A stretch of DNA of 64,000 nucleotides, from NCBI RefSeq assembly GCF_016903815.1, contig NZ_CP069973.1; one strand, written 5' to 3'. The position numbers were made by a program, and so were the translations under genes. Under the pieces are notes generated by a model, which saw only the letters and a program-made list of their open reading frames with translations, did no database searches and was not told the DNA's origin. Below, in pieces: positions 3,711 to 56,854 of this stretch (position 1 is the first letter of the stretch; every line of letters starts with the position of its first letter). This DNA is from Escherichia coli (GTDB lineage Bacteria; Pseudomonadota; Gammaproteobacteria; Enterobacterales; Enterobacteriaceae).

Positions 3711-4609
3711 TTGCGCTCCTCGTCTTTCTCTTCGTGCAGATTATTCTCTTCCTCATCCGCACGGTTCGGACCGACACCCACGTAGTGGAAGATACTGGCT
3801 GCGAAGGTAGCCGCAAAGCCAACAGCTGCGAGCGGTTTCCAGATGCCTTTCCAGAATTTCACGGTTTCGCTGATTTCCGGGTTCTCCGGCAAGCCATGAT
3901 ACAGATTTGGCTTGTCAGCATGGTGCAGCACGTACATAACGTGTGTACCACCAACGCCTGCCGGATCGTACAGACCCGCATTGTCGTAACCGCGAGTTTT
4001 CAGCTCCGCCACGCGCTCGCTCGCCAGCGTTTTCATCGACTCTTTCGTACCGAAGTGAATCGCGCCCGTTGGGCAGGTCTTCACGCAGGCCGGTTCTTGC
4101 CCAACCACCACGCGGTCAACGCACAGCGTACATTTGTAGACGCGGTTGTCTTCCGGGTTGAGGCGCGGAATGTCGAACGGACAGCCCGCAATGCAATAAC
4201 CGCAGCCGATGCACTGCTCGGACTGGAAGTCGACGATACCGTTGGCATACTGAATAATTGCTCCTTCCGCCGGGCACGCTTTCAGGCAGCCTGGATCGGA
4301 ACAGTGCATACAGCCGTCTTTGCGGATCAGCCATTCCAGTTTGTCGTTCTGTTCCACTTCCGAGAAGCGCATCACCGTCCACGATTTGGCACTTAAATCA
4401 TTGGGGTTGTCGTACACCCCAATGTTATTGCCGACGGTATCGCGAATGTCGTTCCACTCTGAACACGCCACCTGACAGGCTTTACAGCCGATACAGGTGG
4501 TGACGTCGATGAGTTTCGCCACTTCTTCCTGGAAGTCCCGCGCCTGAGGCGCGGGGGTCAGACCGTTAGTCGCGGAACGACGAATGATATCTTGAGATTG
4601 ATAAGCCAT
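3707..4609 (-). CDS. fdoH: formate dehydrogenase-O iron-sulfur subunit
   Basis: 300-aa ORF with multiple CxxCxxCxxxCP ferredoxin motifs. Confidence 0.94.
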
Positions 4610-4621
4610 ATGTCGTCTCCG

Positions 4622-7600
4622 TTACACCTTTTCCACATTCACAAGGAAGGACTTAAACTCTGGCGTCTGCGTGTTCGCATCACCAACGAATGGCGTTAAC
4701 GTATTGGCAATAAAGCCTTTTTTCGCAACACCTTCATAGCCCCAGTGAATCGGAATACCGATGGTATCGATATCTTTGCCGTTCGCTTTCAGCGTGCGAA
4801 TACGTTTGGTCACCACCGCTTTGGCTTTTATATAGCCACGGTTGGAGGAGACTTTCACTGTATCGCCCTGGGCAATGCCAAGTTTATTCGCCAGCGACTC
4901 ACCGATTTCCACAAACTGCTCTGGTTGCAAAATCGCGTTCAACAGCGCGTGTTTGGTCCAGTAGTGGAAGTGCTCGGTCAGACGATAGGTGGTTCCGACA
5001 TACGGGAACTTATCGGCTTTACCCAATGCTTCGGCGTCGTCTTTAAAGATACGTGCAGCCGGGTTCGAGATAACGTTTGGATGCAGCGGGTTAGTTCCCA
5101 GCGGCGTTTCAAACGGCTCGTAGTGTTCCGGGAACGGACCTTCCGCCATCTTATCGAGGGCAAACAGACGCCCCATGCCTTCCTGCTGCATGATAAACGG
5201 CCCAACGCCACTGCCCGGAGGCGCTGCGCTGTAGTCCGGAATATCCCAGCCGGTCCACTTAGTGCCGTCCCATTTCAGCAACTGACGCTTCGGATCCCAC
5301 GGGTTACCCTGCGGATCTGCGGAGGCGCGGTTATACAGAATGCGGCGGTTAAGCGGCCATGCCCATGCCCAGCCCAGCGTGTTACCGAGGCCAGACGGAT
5401 CGGCGTTATCACGACGCGCCATCTGGTTGCCCTCTGGCGTCCAGCTACCGGCGAAAATCCAGCAGCCACAGGAGGTGGTACCGTCATCGCGCAGTTGGGC
5501 GAACGAGCTAAGTTGTTGGCCTTTCTTGACGATAACCGCACCGGTTGCCGGATCGGTAATATCGGCCAGCGCCTTACCGTTGCTCTCCATCGCCACTTCT
5601 TCCGACTTCGGCTCATGCGGGATGGCGTAGTTCCAGGTCATGTTCAGCACCTGGTCCGGGTTCGCGCCACCCTGTTCGGCATACATCTTGCGCAAGCGCA
5701 GGAAGATACCGGAGAGGATCTCGCCGTCAGTCAGCGCAATCCCAGGGGCGTCCGCACCTTTCCAGTGCCACTGCAACCAGCGACCTGAGTTAACGATTGA
5801 ACCGTTCTCTTCCGCGAAGCAGGTCGATGGCAGACGGAACACTTCGGTCTGGATCTTCGACGAGTCAACTTCGTTCAGCTCACCGTGGTTCTGCCAGAAG
5901 TTAGAGGTTTCAGTGTTCAGCGGGTCGATGGTGACGAGGAACTTCAGTTTCGACAGACAACCGATCACTTTGTTTTTGTTCGGGAATGAGGCAACAGGGT
6001 TAAAACCCTGGCAGATATAGCCATTGACCTTGCCTTCTTTCATCATCTCGAAGTATTGCAGGACGTCGTAGCCTTTATCCCACTTCGGCAACCAGTCAAA
6101 GCCCCAGCTATTTTCCGCCGTCGCTTTATCACCAAAGAAGGCCTTCATCATAGAGACGAAGAATTTCGGGTAGTTGCCCCAGTAGTTTACCTGGCCTTCC
6201 AGCAGCGGTTTTGGCGTGTTGGCGGTAAGGTAGGTTTGCAGATCGGTCTGCTTCTCGCTTGGCAGCGTCATGTAACCCGGCAGGCTCTGCGACAGCAGCC
6301 CCAGGTCCGTCAGCCCCTGAATATTGGAGTGACCGCGCAGGGCGTTAACGCCGCCGCCGGCCATCCCCATATTGCCGAGCAGCAGCTGGATCATCGCCAT
6401 CGTACGAATGTTTTGCGCACCAACGGAGTGTTGCGTCCAGCCGAGGGCATACAGGAACGAGGCAGTTTTATCGTGTGCACTGGTTTCGGCGATGTATTCG
6501 CAGACTTTCAGGAACGCGTCTTTTGGCGTACCACAGATGTTTTCAACCACATCTGGCGTGTAGCGGGAAACGTGCTGTTTCAGCAAGTTCCACACGCAGC
6601 GCGGATGTTGCAGCGTGGTATCGCGTTTGGCGAAGCCGTTTTCGTCCAGTTCGTAAGTCCAGGAGGATTTATCGTACTTGCGTTTTTCCGCGTCGTAGCC
6701 GGTGAACAGGCCATCTTCAAAGCCGTAATCCTCACGCACGATAAGGCTAGCGTTGGTATAGGCTTCGGTATATTCGCGGTTGAATTTTTCATTGTTCAGC
6801 AGGTACAGCAATACGCCTGACAGGAAAGCAATGTCAGTACCGGAACGAATAGGGGCATAGTAGTCAGCCACCGCCGCCGTACGCGTAAAGCGAGGATCGA
6901 TCACAATCAGCTTCGCGCCGTTGTGAATTTTGGCTTCCATCGCCCAGCGGAACCCGACCGGGTGAGCTTCAGCGGCATTACCGCCCATCACCACGACGAG
7001 GTTGGCGTTCTTGATGTCGACCCAGTGGTTGGTCATCGCACCGCGACCAAATGTTGGAGCAAGACTTGCTACCGTTGGTCCGTGTCAGACACGCGCCTGG
7101 TTGTCGACCGCGAGCATCCCCAGCGCGCGGGAGAATTTTTGCGTTAAATAGCCGGTTTCGTTACTCGACGCGGAAGCACAAAGCATCCCGGTGGAGAGCC
7201 AGCGGTTAACAGTCACGCCTTCGGCGTTTTGCGCAATGTAGTTAGCATCGCGGTCTTCTTTCATCAGTTTGGCGATGCGATCAAACGCCTCTTCCCAACT
7301 GATTTGCTGCCATTTATCAGAACCTGGCGCACGGTATTCCGGAAACTTCAGACGGCTTTCGGAGTGGATGAAATCCACCAGGCCAGCGCCTTTCGGACAA
7401 AGTGCACCGCGGTTGACCGGGTGATCCGGATCGCCTTCGATATGGAAGATAGATGCTTTGGCGTTTTTTGCTCCGTCACCGAGGCTGTACATCAACAGCC
7501 CACAGCCTACGGAACAATAGGTGCAGGTATTACGGGTTTCGCGGGTGCGCAGCAGTTTATACTGCCGGGTTTCCGCGAGTGCTACGCTGGGTGCAAAACC

Positions 7601-49890: not shown

Positions 49891-50005
49891 CTGTAATTTG
49901 CCTTTTATAAATTCTGAAAAATTCCGGGGTGTTAACTCATTATCATTTCCTGTTGTTGACTGGCGCTAGGCTTCTGGTTCTTATTTATTTCAAAAGGATT
50001 TTACG

Positions 50006-53000
50006 ATGAGCGGAAAACCGGCGGCGCGTCAGGGCGACATGACGCAGTATGGCGGTAGCATTGTCCAGGGTTCAGCCGGGGTGCGCATCGGTGCCCCCAC
50101 CGGCGTGGCCTGTTCGGTGTGCCCCGGCGGGGTGACGTCCGGCCATCCGGTCAATCCGCTGCTCGGCGCGAAGGTCCTTCCCGGAGAAACCGACCTTGCC
50201 CTGCCCGGCCCGCTGCCGTTCATCCTCTCCCGCACCTACAGCAGTTACCGGACAAAAACGCCCGCGCCGGTGGGGAGCCTCGGCCCCGGCTGGAAAATGC
50301 CTGCGGATATCCGCTTACAGCTGCGCGATAACACACTGATACTCAGTGATAACGGCGGCAGAAGCCTGTATTTTGAGCACCTGTTTCCCGGTGAGGACGG
50401 TTACAGCCGCAGCGAGTCACTCTGGCTGGTGCGCGGCGGCGTGGCGAAACTGGATGAAGGTCACCGGCTGGCCGCACTCTGGCAGGCGCTGCCGGAAGAG
50501 CTTCGCCTGAGTCCGCATCGTTATCTGGCGACGAACAGTCCGCAGGGGCCGTGGTGGGTACTCGGCTGGTGTGAGCGGGTGCCGGAGGCGGATGAGGTGC
50601 TGCCTGCGCCGCTGCCGCCGTACCGGGTACTGACCGGGCTGGTGGACCGCTTCGGGCGCACACAGACGTTCCACCGTGAGGCTGGCGGCGAAATCACCGG
50701 CGTGACGGATGGTGCCGGGCGTCACTTCCGGCTGGTACTGACCACGCAGGCGCAGCGGGCAGAAGAAGCCCGGCAGCAGGCCTCTTCCGGCGGGACGGAA
50801 CCGTCCGCTTTTCCTGATACCCTGCCGGGTTACACCGAATATGGCCGGGACAACGGCATCCGTCTGTCTGCCGTGTGGCTGACGCACGACCCGGAATACC
50901 CGGAGAATTTACCTGCCGCGCCGCTGGTGCGCTATGGCTGGACGCCACGCGGCGAACTGGCGGCGGTGTATGACCGCAGCAATACACAGGTGCGCAGCTT
51001 TACTTACGATGATAAATACCGGGGCCGGATGGTGGCGCACCGTCACACGGGCCGGCCGGAAATCCGTTACCGTTACGACAGCGACGGGCGGGTGACAGAA
51101 CAGCTAAACCCGGCAGGCTTAAGCTACACGTATCAGTATGAGAAAGACCGCATCACCATCACCGACAGTATGGACCGCCGTGAAGTGCTGCACACGCAGG
51201 GCGAAGGCGGGCTGAAGCGGGTGGTGAAAAAGGAACACGCGGACGGCAGCGTCACGCAGAGTCAGTTTGATGCGGTGGGCAGGCTTAAGGCACAGACGGA
51301 TGCCGCAGGCCGGACGACTGAGTACAGCCCGGATGTGGTGACGGGACTCATCACGCGCATCACCACACCGGATGGCAGGGCATCGGCATTTTACTATAAC
51401 CACCACAACCAGTTAACGTCAGCCACCGGGCCTGACGGGCTGGAAATACGCCGGGAATATGATGAATCCGGCCGTCTGATTCAGGAAACCGCACACAACG
51501 GCGATATCACCCGCTACCGTTATGATAATCCACACAGTGACTTACCCTGCGCAACGGAAGATGCCACCGGCAGCCGGAAAACCATGACATGGAGCCGTTA
51601 CGGTCAGTTGCTGACCGTCACTGACTGTTCCGGTTATGTAACCCGTTATGACCATGACCGTTTTGGTCAGGTGACGGCGGTGCACCGCGAGGAAGGGCTG
51701 AGTCAGTACCGCGCATACGACAGCCGTGGACAGTTAATTGCGGTGAAAGACACGCAGGGCCATGAAACGCGGTATGAATACAACGCCGCCGGTGACCTGA
51801 CCGCCGTCATTGCCCCGGACGGCAGCAGAAACGGGACACAGTACGATGCGTGGGGAAAGGCCATCCGTACCACACAGGGCGGTCTGACGCGCAGTATGGA
51901 ATACGATGCTGCCGGACGGGTCATCCGCCTGACCAGTGAAAACGGCAGCCACACCACCTTCCGTTACGATGTACTCGACCGGCTGATACAGGAAACCGGC
52001 TTTGACGGCCGCACACAGCGTTATCACCACGACCTGACCGGCAAACTTATCCGCAGCGAGGATGAGGGGCTGGTCACCCACTGGCACTATGACGAAGCAG
52101 ACCGCATCACACAGCGAACGGTGAATGGTGAAACCGCAGAACAGTGGCGGTACGACGAACGCGGCTGGCTGACACAAATCAGCCATCTCAGCGAAGGCCA
52201 CCGGGTGACGGTGCATTACGGGTATGATGAGAAAGGCCGCCTGACCGGTGAGCGCCAGACGGTGCATCACCCGCAGACGGAAGCACTGCTCTGGCAGCAT
52301 GAAACCAGACACGCTTACAACGCGCAGGGACTGGCGAACCGCTGTATACCGGACAGCCTGCCCGCCGTGGAATGGCTGACTTACGGCAGCGGCTGGCTGG
52401 CAGGCATGAAACTCGGCGACACACCGCTGGTGGATTTCACCCGCGACCGCCTGCACCGGGAAACGCTGCGCAGCTTCGGCCGTTATGAACTCACCACCGC
52501 TTATACCTCTGCCGGGCAGTTACAGAGCCAGCACCTGAACAGCCTGCAGTATGACCGCGATTACACCTGGAACGACAACGGCGAACTCATCCGCATCAGC
52601 AGCCCGCGCCAGACCCGGAGTTACAGCTACAGCGACACCGGCAGGCTGACCGGCGTCCACACCACGGCAGCGAACCTTGATATCCGCATCCCGTATGCCA
52701 CGGACCCGGCGGGCAACCGCCTGCCCGACCCGGAGCTGCACCCGGACAGCCCCCTCAGCGCATGGCCGGATAACCGTATCGCCCGTGACGCGCACTATCT
52801 TTACCGGTATGACCGTCACGGCAGGCTGACGGAGAAAACCGACCTCATCCCGGAAGGGGTTATCCGCACGGATGATGAGCGGACTCACCGGTACCATTAC
52901 GACAGCCGGCACCGGCTGGTGCACTACACGCGGACACAATATGCAGAGCCGCTGGTCGAAAGTCGCTATCTTTACGACCTGCTGGGCCGCAGGGTGGCAA

Positions 53001-54178
53001 AACGGGTATGGCGGCGTGAACGGGACCTGACGGGCTGGATGTCGCTGTCATGGAAACCGGAAGTGCCCTGGTACGGCTGGGACGGCGACCGGCTGACCAC
53101 AATACAGAACGACAGAACCCGCATCCAGACGGTTTATCAGCCGGGGAGCTTCACGCCACTCATCAGAGTTGAAACTGCCACCGGTGAGCTGGCGAAAACG
53201 CAGCGCCGCAGCCTGGCGGATGCGCTTCAGCAGTCCGGCGGTGAAGACGGTGGCAGTGTGGTGTTCCCGCCGGTGCTGGTGCAGATGCTCGACCGGCTGG
53301 AAAGTGAAATCCTGGCTGACCGGGTGAGTGAGGAAAGCCGCCGCTGGCTGGCATCGTGCGGCCTGACGGTGGAGCAGATACAAAACCAGATGGACCCGGT
53401 GTACACGCCGGCGCGAAAAATCCACCTGTACCACTGCGACCATCGCGGCCTGCCGCTGGCGCTTGTCAGCACGGAAGGGGCAACAGAATGGTGCGCAGAA
53501 TACGATGAATGGGGCAACCTGCTGAATGAAGAGAACCCGCATCAGCTGCAGCAGCTCATCCGCCTGCCGGGTCAGCAGTATGATGAGGAGTCCGGCCTGT
53601 ATTACAACCGCCACCGCTATTATGACCCGCTGCAGGGGCGGTATATCACTCAGGATCCGATTGGGCTGAAGGGGGGATGGAATTTTTATCAGTATCCGTT
53701 GAATCCGATCTCAAATATAGATCCATTAGGATTATATGAATTTAAATCAAAAAATATAGATGATATTGGAATATTTGCATTGGCAATGTGTAATGGAGAA
53801 TCAATTAACGAGAATAAAGAATATGGTGGGCTAATATGTAAGAAGCAAGGTGAATATTTCCCCATGAATCCGATAAGTTCAAATGATAATGATAGTGTAG
53901 ACTTGCGAAATATAAAATGCCCTGAAGGTTCAGAGAGAGTAGGCGATTATCACACTCACGGTTTTTACTCTGACGATAAAGGCAATAAAGTAACAAAAGA
54001 AAATGATGTTTATGATAGTCTAAATTTTTCAAGCAAAGATTTAACGAATTCTTATATGAATGGAATGGGAAAAAAAGAATACAGTAGTTACTTGGGAACA
54101 CCAAATAACACCTATCTAAAATATAATCCCAAAGCTAAAGGGAATGGAGTTACAATTATCAGGCAAGGGAGTAATTAA
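50006..54178 (+). CDS. Rhs-family polymorphic toxin (1390 aa): RhsA-like N-terminus, YD-repeat core, AT-rich C-terminal toxin tip
   Basis: N-terminus [17 protein letters not shown]...; many YD/RYxYD repeats; core-end motif [27 protein letters not shown] near aa 1243; composition switch near 53690. Confidence 0.9.
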
Positions 54179-54179
54179 A

Positions 54180-54503
54180 ATGAAGGTAATACAATGTTGT
54201 TATTTCCTTGCTTTAGTCTCCAGTCATTTAATGGCTGGAGTTATGAGTGATGACAATATATTTTTAAGTAATTCGGATTTAGCTGCTTTATATTGTGTGG
54301 CTAAAATATTTCCAGATGGAGAAAATATTTTAATATATAAAGTAAATATAATTAATGCTAGTTCAAAAAAAGATGTATTTTTTTATGAAAGCCCAACATC
54401 AACCCACAATGACATAATGGGGGGCGGGGGAATGTCATATGCCTATGAATATGATGTAAAATATAATATATGTCATTTGAGAAAAAAGAGCAGAATGAGG
54501 TAA
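54180..54503 (+). CDS. putative cognate immunity protein (107 aa from MKVIQCCYFLALVSS...)
   Basis: ATG 1 nt after the rhs TAA (TAAaATG); GGGAG SD inside the rhs 3' end; same AT-rich composition as the toxin tip. Confidence 0.5.
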   Translation: MKVIQCCYFLALVSSHLMAGVMSDDNIFLSNSDLAALYCVAKIFPDGENILIYKVNIINASSKKDVFFYESPTSTHNDIMGGGGMSYAYEYDVKYNICHLRKKSRMR

Positions 54504-54759
54504 AAATCTTTGGCTGTGTATTCAGTCTGGTAATCATCCAAGGAAAGCTCATCAGAAGGGTGATGACTCCAATTAGTAGAACATATATTTTCGATAAAAG
54601 CACCGATGACTTTTTCATGAAGTTCTACAGAACGCGAGAAACAGATGGTTCTGCGGGCCAGACGTTTGATTCGGGTTCTCAGGGGCAGATTGTTACGCTC
54701 AATGGGTGATGCTGCCAACTTACTGATTTAGTGTATGATGGTGTTTTTGAGGTGCTCCA

Positions 54760-55035
54760 GTGGCTTCTGTTTCTATCAGCTGTCCCTCCTGTTCAGCTAC
54801 TGACGGGGTGGTGCGTAACGGCAAAAGCACCGCCGGACATCAGCGCTATCTCTGCTCTCACTGCCGTAAAACATGGCAACTGCAGTTCACTTACACCGCT
54901 TCTCAACCCGGTACGCACCAGAAAATCATTGATATGGCCATGAATGGCGTTGGATGCCGGGCAACCGCCCGCATTATGGGCGTTGGCCTCAACACGATTT
55001 TCCGCCATTTAAAAAACTCAGGCCGCAGTCGGTAA
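54760..55035 (+). CDS. insA: IS1 InsA
   Basis: 91-aa [25 protein letters not shown]... Confidence 0.92.
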
Positions 55036-55457
55036 CCTCGCGCATACAGCCGGGCAGTGACGTCATCGTCTGCGCGGAAATGGACGAACAGTGGGGATAC
55101 GTCGGGGCTAAATCGCGCCAGCGCTGGCTGTTTTACGCGTATGACAGGCTCCGGAAGACGGTTGTTGCGCACGTATTCGGTGAACGCACTATGGCGACGC
55201 TGGGGCGTCTTATGAGCCTGCTGTCACCCTTTGACGTGGTGATATGGATGACGGATGGCTGGCCGCTGTATGAATCCCGCCTGAAGGGAAAGCTGCACGT
55301 AATCAGCAAGCGATATACGCAGCGAATTGAGCGGCATAACCTGAATCTGAGGCAGCACCTGGCACGGCTGGGACGGAAGTCGCTGTCGTTCTCAAAATCG
55401 GTGGAGCTGCATGACAAAGTCATCGGGCATTATCTGAACATAAAACACTATCAATAA
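54954..55457 (+). CDS. insB: IS1 InsB reading frame (expressed as InsAB' by frameshift)
   Basis: 167-aa ORF overlapping insA in the -1 frame. Confidence 0.9.
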
Positions 55458-56186
55458 GTTGGAGTCATTACCCGCTCAATGTGCTGAGTAAAAATCTTAC
55501 CAGTCAGATGCTTCTCCTTTGGTAACTCTCTAGCGTAACTACCCCATTCGTCAGTGGTCAACATGCCGATGGTAAAAGGGTAAGCAGCGCCAGCAGTTCA
55601 CGACAGGTTTCATCAGTCCGGGGGCCAAAAGTGTAGGCCAGAACACCACCAGTTTTCGTGTTGTACACGTACCAGAGCCAGTGCTGTCGCGCTTTACTGC
55701 CGACAAAGCTCCATTGCTGACTAAGTTCGCAGATGAGTGCCACATCAGCATGAGCGACCGGGGATGACGTTATTTTTCGTGGCGAGAGTTTTTTAAAGTT
55801 CGGATGACTGTATTAATGCCAATTTTCAGCGTACGGGCAGTATAGCGAACCCCGGCACCGTTGAAAGCCATTTCAGCGATTTGGTCTTTAACTCCTGGTT
55901 TACGGGGCTCGTAACAGTAACTGAGCTGAAATACCCGGTGACAGTCACGGCCGCGGAATCGATCATGTCTTTTGGGGTTCTGCCCGTGACGGTAAACCTG
56001 AACGGACTGGCAACGGGGACAATGAAGGTTAACTGTGACCATGAAACAACCTTAAAAGCGAGTATTATATCCTTAATTCAACTAATTGGAGGCATCACCG
56101 TTTACCGGAGCGACAGCTTGCGGAAAGGTCGTGCAACTACAAAGCAACAAACAGACTACGGCGGGAATTATTTTTTTTATCATCCA

Positions 56187-56795
56187 TTACCACGAAAACA
56201 GCGGCCATTCTTTGGCAACAGTGGTGAGTTGTGGCGCATCGAAAACGGCTTGTGGCGAGACCACCGTTTCCTCAAGCGGAATATTCTTGCCGTAACGTTC
56301 TTTGAGCTTTGCCTGAACTTGTGGGCTGCTCAGGTCGAACTCTTTCAACTTCTGCTGTTCGCCCACGCGCATTCCCAGCGCATTCTGATAAACCTTCCAC
56401 ACCACTTCCGAACAGTACTGGCGATCGTCGCTCCACGAGAAGCTGAAATCGTACGGTTTGCCGAGATAACGTTTTGCCGTTTGCGCCAGTTTTTGCTGTT
56501 GTTTAACACTCAGTCCGCCTTCAACGCGGCGAACAACGTATTTGCCCTTTTCACCATGGGCAATCCACTGCTTGAGCGGGGTGTATTTCACCGGGCCGAC
56601 CGCTTCAAAAACGTAGGGCTTTTTGTTACGCATCACCAGCATACCGGTGTGGCTGTAATCGGAATGGGTCGCCAGTTGGATCGCTTTACTTTGCGATGAG
56701 CGAGAGATCTGAAAGATGATGTCGCCGGTTTGTGGTTGCCAGGCAAATGCAGGCACAGAAACCAGCAGACCGGGGATCAGTAGCCTGATTATCAT
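56187..56795 (-). CDS. yiiX: secreted NlpC/P60-like peptidase-family protein YiiX
   Basis: 202-aa ORF with signal peptide; synteny with metJ. Confidence 0.85.
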   Translation of the reverse strand: MIIRLLIPGLLVSVPAFAWQPQTGDIIFQISRSSQSKAIQLATHSDYSHTGMLVMRNKKPYVFEAVGPVKYTPLKQWIAHGEKGKYVVRRVEGGLSVKQQQKLAQTAKRYLGKPYDFSFSWSDDRQYCSEVVWKVYQNALGMRVGEQQKLKEFDLSSPQVQAKLKERYGKNIPLEETVVSPQAVFDAPQLTTVAKEWPLFSW

Positions 56796-56854
56796 CGTTA
56801 AACGTCCATGTATAAAAAAAGCGGCAGGTTAACTCCGCGCCGCTCTTTTCCGCT

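Follow-up and report, generated by a model that had tools for sequence, protein, structure and literature searches.

The Rhs element between rpmE and yiiX in Escherichia coli: a known toxin/immunity locus in the probable place of a lost lipoprotein gene

The stretch of 64,000 nucleotides of the Escherichia coli contig NZ_CP069973.1 (assembly GCF_016903815.1) analyzed in this work, further referred to as the window, carries between the genes rpmE and yiiX an Rhs gene, a small downstream open reading frame (ORF) named dsORF-f3 and two insertion sequence (IS) copies of the IS1 family. We read this block, with a probability of about 0.85, as the known Rhs toxin/immunity element of rhs locus 11, which on a single occasion replaced an ancestral lipoprotein gene of the TIGR02117/DUF2459 family. 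The locus and its variable presence, like the toxin family and the immunity partner, are already in the literature, and the discovery value of the finding is small in this respect. The modest addition is a history of three alleles at the site, together with a stub of 27 codons of the displaced gene, cut exactly at the end of an IS1-family copy; neither the remnant nor the three-allele structure is mentioned in the accessible papers on the locus.

The original prediction, made from the letters of the window, had placed at 49891-56186 a block of about 6.3 kb consisting of an Rhs gene, an immunity ORF and IS1-family DNA, and had stated that rpmE and yiiX are adjacent in K-12, with the K-12 Rhs elements sited elsewhere. 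In the alignments with K-12 and with a genome carrying the empty site (L003), homology ends at 49893 and restarts at 56186/56187, so that the predicted coordinates proved to be correct within 3 bp. The two genes are indeed neighbors in K-12 MG1655, where 60 bp separate them and the element is missing, and the proposed composition of the block, with the immunity function presumed, was borne out by the ORFs and domain matches. The features of the region, in positions of the window, are the following.

47233 to 49503, minus strand: priA, from the gene order in the window.
49634 to 49846, plus strand: rpmE (ribosomal protein L31), the conserved left flank; Pfam Ribosomal_L31, E = 5.7e-32, and rpmE annotation in all compared genomes.
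49860 to 49893, plus strand: rpmE terminator hairpin and the final bases common to all three site alleles (...GTGCCTG), from sequence inspection.
49894 to 50005, plus strand: AT-rich leader specific to the Rhs element, 112 bp, GC content 34%.
50006 to 54178, plus strand: intact Rhs ORF of 1390 amino acids; Pfam DUF6531, 11 RHS repeats, RHS core and DUF4329.
50006 to 53734, plus strand: Rhs core, 3729 bp, GC content 61.7%; Pfam and NCBIfam matches.
50006 to 50140, plus strand: PAAR-like N-terminus.
50141 to 50374, plus strand: DUF6531 (Pfam).
53501 to 53734, plus strand: RHS-associated core, ending in DPLGL; TIGR03696 matched over positions 1-76 of 76 at residues 1166-1243.
53735 to 54178, plus strand: C-terminal tip of the Rhs protein, residues 1244-1390 (147 amino acids), with the stop codon at 54176-54178; Pfam DUF4329.
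54180 to 54503, plus strand: dsORF-f3, 107 amino acids, the presumed cognate immunity gene; RefSeq 'RHS element protein dsORF-f3'.
54504 to 54558: spacer of 55 bp, from dsORF-f3 to the old IS1-like copy, with no match to the TIGR02117 allele, from sequence inspection.
54559 to 56099, minus strand: old IS1H-like element, 764 bp without the IS1 nested in it; inverted repeats and Pfam InsA and DDE_Tnp_IS1.
54705 to 55472, plus strand: canonical IS1 of 768 bp, intact and inserted into the old copy; insA at 54760-55035 and insB' at 54954-55457.
56100 to 56186, minus strand: TIGR02117/DUF2459 remnant, the first 27 codons (81 bp) and the 6-bp gap before yiiX; 85 of 87 positions identical to 9724-9810 of L006.
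56187 to 56795, minus strand: yiiX (C92 permuted papain-like enzyme), the conserved right flank; Pfam Peptidase_C92, E = 2.7e-49, and RefSeq annotation.

Eleven rhs positions were described in E. coli (Jackson et al., 2009, BMC Genomics 10:584, PMC2935791). Locus 11, situated in the interval from yiiX to priA, was inferred there to stem from a duplication of the rhsC position, at a time when one group of pathogenic strains had already split off. The element of the window is this locus and not a new integration site: it occupies the same position and has the core of Clade I (RhsA-B-C-type), nothing essential differs, and the strain adds only its private nested IS1. The occupancy of the site was counted directly in 5,426 complete E. 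coli genomes, with a match required to cover at least 80% of the query; being drawn from sequenced isolates, these genomes are a biased sample. The left junction of rpmE with the Rhs element was present in 2176 genomes (identity at least 99%), the tip together with dsORF-f3 in 2164 and the whole 7.4-kb region in 2024, the K-12-type empty junction in 2959 and the allele with the TIGR02117 gene in 288, the three site alleles totaling 5423 genomes. Since the tip and dsORF-f3 were always chromosomal, about one copy per genome and 98-100% identical, the locus carries essentially one tip. The proposal of a strain-variable integration site thus holds as regards variability (2176 Rhs against 2959 empty), with K-12 lacking the element and the Rhs gene standing here in 2176 of the 5426 genomes rather than in most of them; the part of it that implied a new site, or entry into an empty spacer, does not stand in view of the known locus 11 and of the TIGR02117 remnant.

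The third allele is represented by strain DL21 (L006), one of about 290 genomes with neither the Rhs element nor the empty state, in which a TIGR02117/DUF2459 lipoprotein gene of 624 bp (9181-9804 of L006) is located in the rpmE-yiiX interval, separated from the downstream side of yiiX by 6 bp. Identity of the window to the 5' end of this gene begins at the base right after the inverted repeat of the old IS1-like copy; the remnant translates to MIKKIIPAVVCLLLCSCTTFPQAVAPVN versus MKKIIPAVVCLLLCSCSTFPQAVAPVN in L006, its annotated start codon being changed from ATG to ATA. The breakpoint falls at position 9724 of L006 in every Rhs-bearing genome among the sampled rows of the allele search, and this shared right breakpoint, together with the uniform left junction, suggests that the Rhs allele arose only once. 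The gene order in related bacteria was read directly and is metJ, yiiX, DUF2459 (with the same gap of 6 bp), two further genes, rpmE and priA in Citrobacter werkmanii, and metJ, arylsulfotransferase, DUF2459, rpmE and priA in Salmonella enterica. Since both carry a DUF2459 gene there, the lipoprotein gene is, as judged from these comparisons, the probable ancestral occupant of the site, and the remnant of 87 bp together with the outgroup gene order indicates that the Rhs allele and the 'adjacent' state of K-12 are both most probably derived. The adjacency in K-12 would then not be ancestral, which cautions against taking K-12 for the 'empty' reference by default. As a separate observation, a second variant of the TIGR02117 protein (P0123, 84% identical, labelled Shigella flexneri / E. 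coli) hints at more allelic diversity at this site or in its vicinity.

Two IS1 copies of different age are present in the right part of the element. The old IS1H-like copy matches the canonical IS1 DNA over 29 bp only, and its ends (54559 and 56099) were located via the inverted repeats at 54556-54581 and 56077-56102; the transposase is frameshifted (insA at 55770-56042, an insB' fragment at 55558-55743), in agreement with the RefSeq label in other genomes, 'IS1-like element IS1H family transposase, frameshifted'. No target duplication was found around this copy, and its right inverted repeat is where the foreign DNA ends on the right. It is accordingly a divergent member of the IS1 family, while the copy nested in it fits the family in all respects, having 768 bp, terminal inverted repeats and the insA/insB' frames; its target sequence of 9 bp, CGCTCAATG, is duplicated at 54696-54704 and 55473-55481. 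The nested IS1, the only canonical copy in the window, is 100% identical to plasmid-borne IS1 copies and splits the alignment to the Rhs-bearing locus L001 exactly at this place, with a 9-bp overlap. With one canonical copy only, the notion that numerous IS1 copies would indicate Shigella was discarded. The junction of the nested IS1 is absent from strain 5283 and was found as a single piece in 0 of the 5426 complete genomes; because 5283 is otherwise identical and no single-piece match was found in the collection, the insertion is recent and private to the strain.

The position of an IS1-family end exactly at the breakpoint, without target duplication, suggests an IS-mediated rearrangement. 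We tentatively propose, as a possibility that we would not yet favor, that one IS1-family event (for example, intramolecular transposition or a rearrangement adjacent to the IS) linked a pre-formed unit, made up of the leader, rhs with dsORF-f3, the spacer of 55 bp and the IS1H-like copy, to codon 28 of the DUF2459 gene, whose remaining part was lost by deletion. The breakpoint at the IS end provides in any case a concrete hypothesis for the colonisation of new sites by Rhs elements; were a single event of this kind true, flanking IS could move Rhs elements, and the three-allele site would be a readable example of it.

The gene content and domains of the element were established directly. The Rhs protein exceeds the threshold of the NCBIfam RHS_core equivalog NF041261 (2614.7 bits at a cut-off of 2000), and its repeats were recognized by Pfam RHS_repeat in 11 stretches (E = 2.4e-71) and by TIGR01643 (YD_repeat) in 5. 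The RHS-associated core closes with ...NIDPLGL at nucleotide 53734, which corresponds to the PxxxxDPxGL cleavage motif, and the variable tip follows. At the N-terminus, residues 4-11 literally read KPAARQGD. The core is 95.3-95.8% identical to the cores of K-12 rhsA, rhsB and rhsC, the homology stopping at about 53724-53735, at the DPLGL codons; at the same border the GC content drops from 62% to 31% (30.8% for the tip with dsORF-f3). The protein is identical in strain 5283, the 4.8-kb Rhs region of which is 100% identical to that of the window; at an identity of at least 99%, this region of the window is matched by only 63 records. Compared with the L001 allele, the protein has an in-frame deletion of 4 amino acids and 8 substitutions, and compared with the commoner allele of 1394 amino acids a 12-nucleotide in-frame deletion (GEFS missing) follows residue 227, at about 50684-50686.

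The tip was assigned to Pfam DUF4329 (PF14220; 55.8 bits at a cut-off of 28.6, residues 1257-1377). According to Zhang et al. (2012, Biol Direct 7:18), DUF4329 overlaps with the toxin family Tox-JAB-2, which is characterized by a motif of E, H[ST]H, S and D, is predicted to be a nuclease rather than a peptidase and is paired with the immunity family Imm-NTF2-2, the latter in E. coli only. The corresponding residues E1272, H1316-T-H1318 and S1342-x-x-D1345 are all present in the tip. The homologue search returned 79 sequences, among them several fusions to PAAR or RHS-core domains, and in the alignment of 57 sequences H80, H82, S106 and D109 never vary, E36 being conserved in at least 90%, these alignment positions being H1316, H1318, S1342, D1345 and E1272 of the full protein. 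The fold and the catalytic motif were obtained directly: AlphaFold2 gave a model of the tip with a predicted local distance difference test score (pLDDT) of 92.4 and a predicted template-modelling score (pTM) of 0.88, the closest folds of which, found with Foldseek, are JAMM/MPN+ enzymes such as CSN5, AMSH, Sst2 and Rpn11 (probability about 1.0). Nearly all of the top 50 PDB matches were of the JAMM/MPN type with a probability of 0.94-1.0, at modest query TM-scores of 0.36-0.51, and at the sequence level the tip had a single chance-level match in the PDB (E = 0.17). The tip is thus confidently modelled as a metalloenzyme of the JAMM/MPN fold with intact catalytic residues, and this model, along with the intact predicted zinc-binding motif, should make a mutational test straightforward. 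The AT-rich tip of other strains has been hit by independent IS1 insertions (L002 5748-6515; L005 at about 6006-6800; strains with IS1F); one such IS1 is inserted exactly at the boundary of the core and the extension, its target duplication corresponding to 53726-53734 of the window, and the gene is inactivated there.

The ORF dsORF-f3 begins 1 nucleotide past the stop codon of rhs, while the ORF list places its start at the upstream ATG at 54144. Its product is an exact match to the UniRef entry O52669 ('DsORF-f3'), the L002 allele matching Q47287, both accessions dating from the 1990s, and its homologues, variants and fragments included, were found in E. coli only. With the Imm-NTF2-2 partner, compared here in position and distribution, it shares the place directly downstream of a Tox-JAB-2 domain and the restriction to E. 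coli. As a whole, the pair resembles the Tox-JAB-2/Imm-NTF2-2 system in the DUF4329 match, the E...H[ST]H...S..D motif, the JAB fold, the fusion to RHS and the E. coli-restricted partner.

Under our reading, the element would code for a polymorphic toxin of the PAAR-like/Rhs type, in which the shell of YD repeats encloses the C-terminal tip of 147 residues and the RHS-associated core, ending in DPLGL, cleaves the tip off. The liberated tip, a putative zinc hydrolase of the JAB/JAMM fold, may poison a neighboring cell after type VI secretion, and the 107-residue product of dsORF-f3 may protect the sibling cells; delivery, toxicity and immunity are attributed here from the knowledge of the family. 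The element would have taken the place of some 550 bp of the ancestral TIGR02117/DUF2459 lipoprotein gene downstream of yiiX, with the right breakpoint at the end of the IS1H-like copy. The replacement presumably happened once, the allele afterwards spreading to about 40% of sequenced E. coli, while K-12 would have a separate derived allele without either gene, and at a later stage the second, intact IS1 would have entered the old IS1 copy in the strain of the window.

Several observations speak against this reading. The part ascribed to the old IS1-like copy in the replacement is drawn from its position only. The locus is probably the RhsF of the Hill laboratory (Zhao and Hill, 1995), as judged by the name dsORF-f3 and the two accessions from the 1990s; the suffix 'f3' points to a larger number of downstream ORFs in the original RhsF than in the window. 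The dsORF-f3 protein gave no match in Pfam or NCBIfam, and its single-sequence AlphaFold2 model (pLDDT 37) has no usable fold. On the N-terminus of the Rhs protein, Pfam PAAR_motif scored 16.5 bits, under the cut-off of 27 (E = 0.0099). No type VI genes (vgrG, hcp or other) lie beside the element, and rpmE stands directly upstream of it. Finally, the label of RNase or nuclease for DUF4329 is in the literature a matter of citation or prediction: the later papers name it an RNase by citation alone (PMC7216683, PMC10469887), and we found no direct biochemistry of DUF4329/Tox-JAB-2 in the accessible literature on the family.

The missing type VI neighbors could also mean that this strain makes no use of the element as a secreted effector. 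The full-length rhs would then be silent, and the tip with dsORF-f3 would act, if at all, as an internally transcribed pair similar to toxin-antitoxin modules, or as a stored immunity gene. The retention of Rhs elements in K-12, which is not known to have a type VI secretion system, would agree with it. We nevertheless regard such a state as rather unlikely, as the ORF of 1390 amino acids is intact, identical in another isolate and conserved in its catalytic motif. The scan for promoters and terminators, though of little weight as evidence, speaks in the same direction: no convincing internal promoter was revealed 5' of the tip, and the sole plus-strand match (53889-53918) lies inside the tip.

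As regards the history of the site, the K-12, TIGR02117 and Rhs alleles all start to diverge immediately after 49893. The identical left breakpoint after GTGCCTG in the empty and Rhs alleles would be expected if the K-12-type empty allele had come from the Rhs allele via deletion of the element with the remnant, and not directly from the TIGR02117 allele. Some yiiX alleles of Rhs strains are also nearer to that of the empty site (97.4%) than to the allele linked to TIGR02117 (93.9%). Such similarity says little, however, given that the yiiX alleles are mosaic relative to the site allele: those of L002 (Rhs) and L006 (TIGR02117) are 98.7% identical, whereas those of the window and L002, both with Rhs, are 93.6% identical. 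The yiiX sequences diverge by as much as 6% without following the site allele, which suggests recombination across the locus. Furthermore, the K-12 site contains 13 bp, AATTTTGGTCGTA, with no counterpart in the window, and a search for the origin of this filler gave no match in the Rhs, TIGR02117, Salmonella or Citrobacter alleles. The empty allele was also found in strains named ST131, ATCC 25922 and F11, where no Rhs junction was seen. Considering these facts, we find the origin of the empty allele by deletion from the Rhs allele improbable, and prefer to view the two as separately derived from the TIGR02117 state.

A simple insertion of the Rhs and IS block into a K-12-like empty spacer between rpmE and yiiX, as implied by the original prediction, would agree with the 60-bp spacing in K-12, with the 2959 genomes of the K-12-type junction and with the fact that the window differs from them only at 49894-56186, but is very improbable. 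The supposed insert would include 56100-56186, a stretch that belongs to the 5' end of a TIGR02117 gene wholly missing in K-12; the 13 bp of K-12 are in turn missing from the window, and a DUF2459 gene is situated at the site in Citrobacter and Salmonella. An integrase-driven genomic island at a specific attachment site, in spite of the presence or absence at a fixed site and the atypical base composition, is hardly credible, with no tRNA and no flanking direct or inverted repeat of at least 8 bp at the borders and no integrase ORF in the element, in which the IS1 transposases are the only mobility genes.

Among the relatives, RhsA, RhsB and RhsC of K-12 share with the element the GC-rich core of 3.7 kb ending at DPxGL, the AT-rich tip and a small downstream ORF, while the leader, the tip and the downstream ORF themselves differ here. 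The leader (49894-50005) had no match at the rhsA or rhsC loci of K-12, and the match to rhsB starts only at 49992, 14 bp ahead of the rhs ATG. In comparison with these K-12 elements, neither partial-core orphan modules nor an H-rpt (yhhI-type) are present, and an IS1-family element forms the boundary instead. The PAAR-RhsA-DUF4329 candidates of Salmonella pathogenicity island 6 (SPI-6; PMC10469887) are likewise Rhs effectors with a DUF4329 tip; unlike the element described here, they are part of the type VI island of SPI-6, and the identity of their tips to that of the window is no more than about 47-58%.

The nomenclature of the gene is not uniform, RefSeq labels of the Rhs gene between rpmE and yiiX varying between rhsB, rhsC and 'RHS element core protein'. 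In the O157:H7 strain EDL933, z5488 (called 'RhsB') is the sole Rhs protein that has been reported with DUF4329 (PMC7216683). Since O157:H7 genomes carry the Rhs locus between rpmE and yiiX and no other DUF4329 Rhs is reported for EDL933, we infer that z5488 is the Rhs gene of this site. The 'RhsF/RhsFI' of enterohaemorrhagic E. coli was considered as the same element and rejected, being ECs0604/z0705 in S-loop 44, a different locus (PMC7618764, PMC7216683).

Beyond yiiX, the gene order in the window continues with metJ and then metB. The gap between yiiX and metJ is 59 bp in the window (56796-56854), L001, L003 and L013, and 183 bp in K-12, L002 and L006; whether the extra segment of about 124-137 bp (3896-4078 of the K-12 locus L004; 8832-8968 of L002) occurs does not depend on the Rhs allele.

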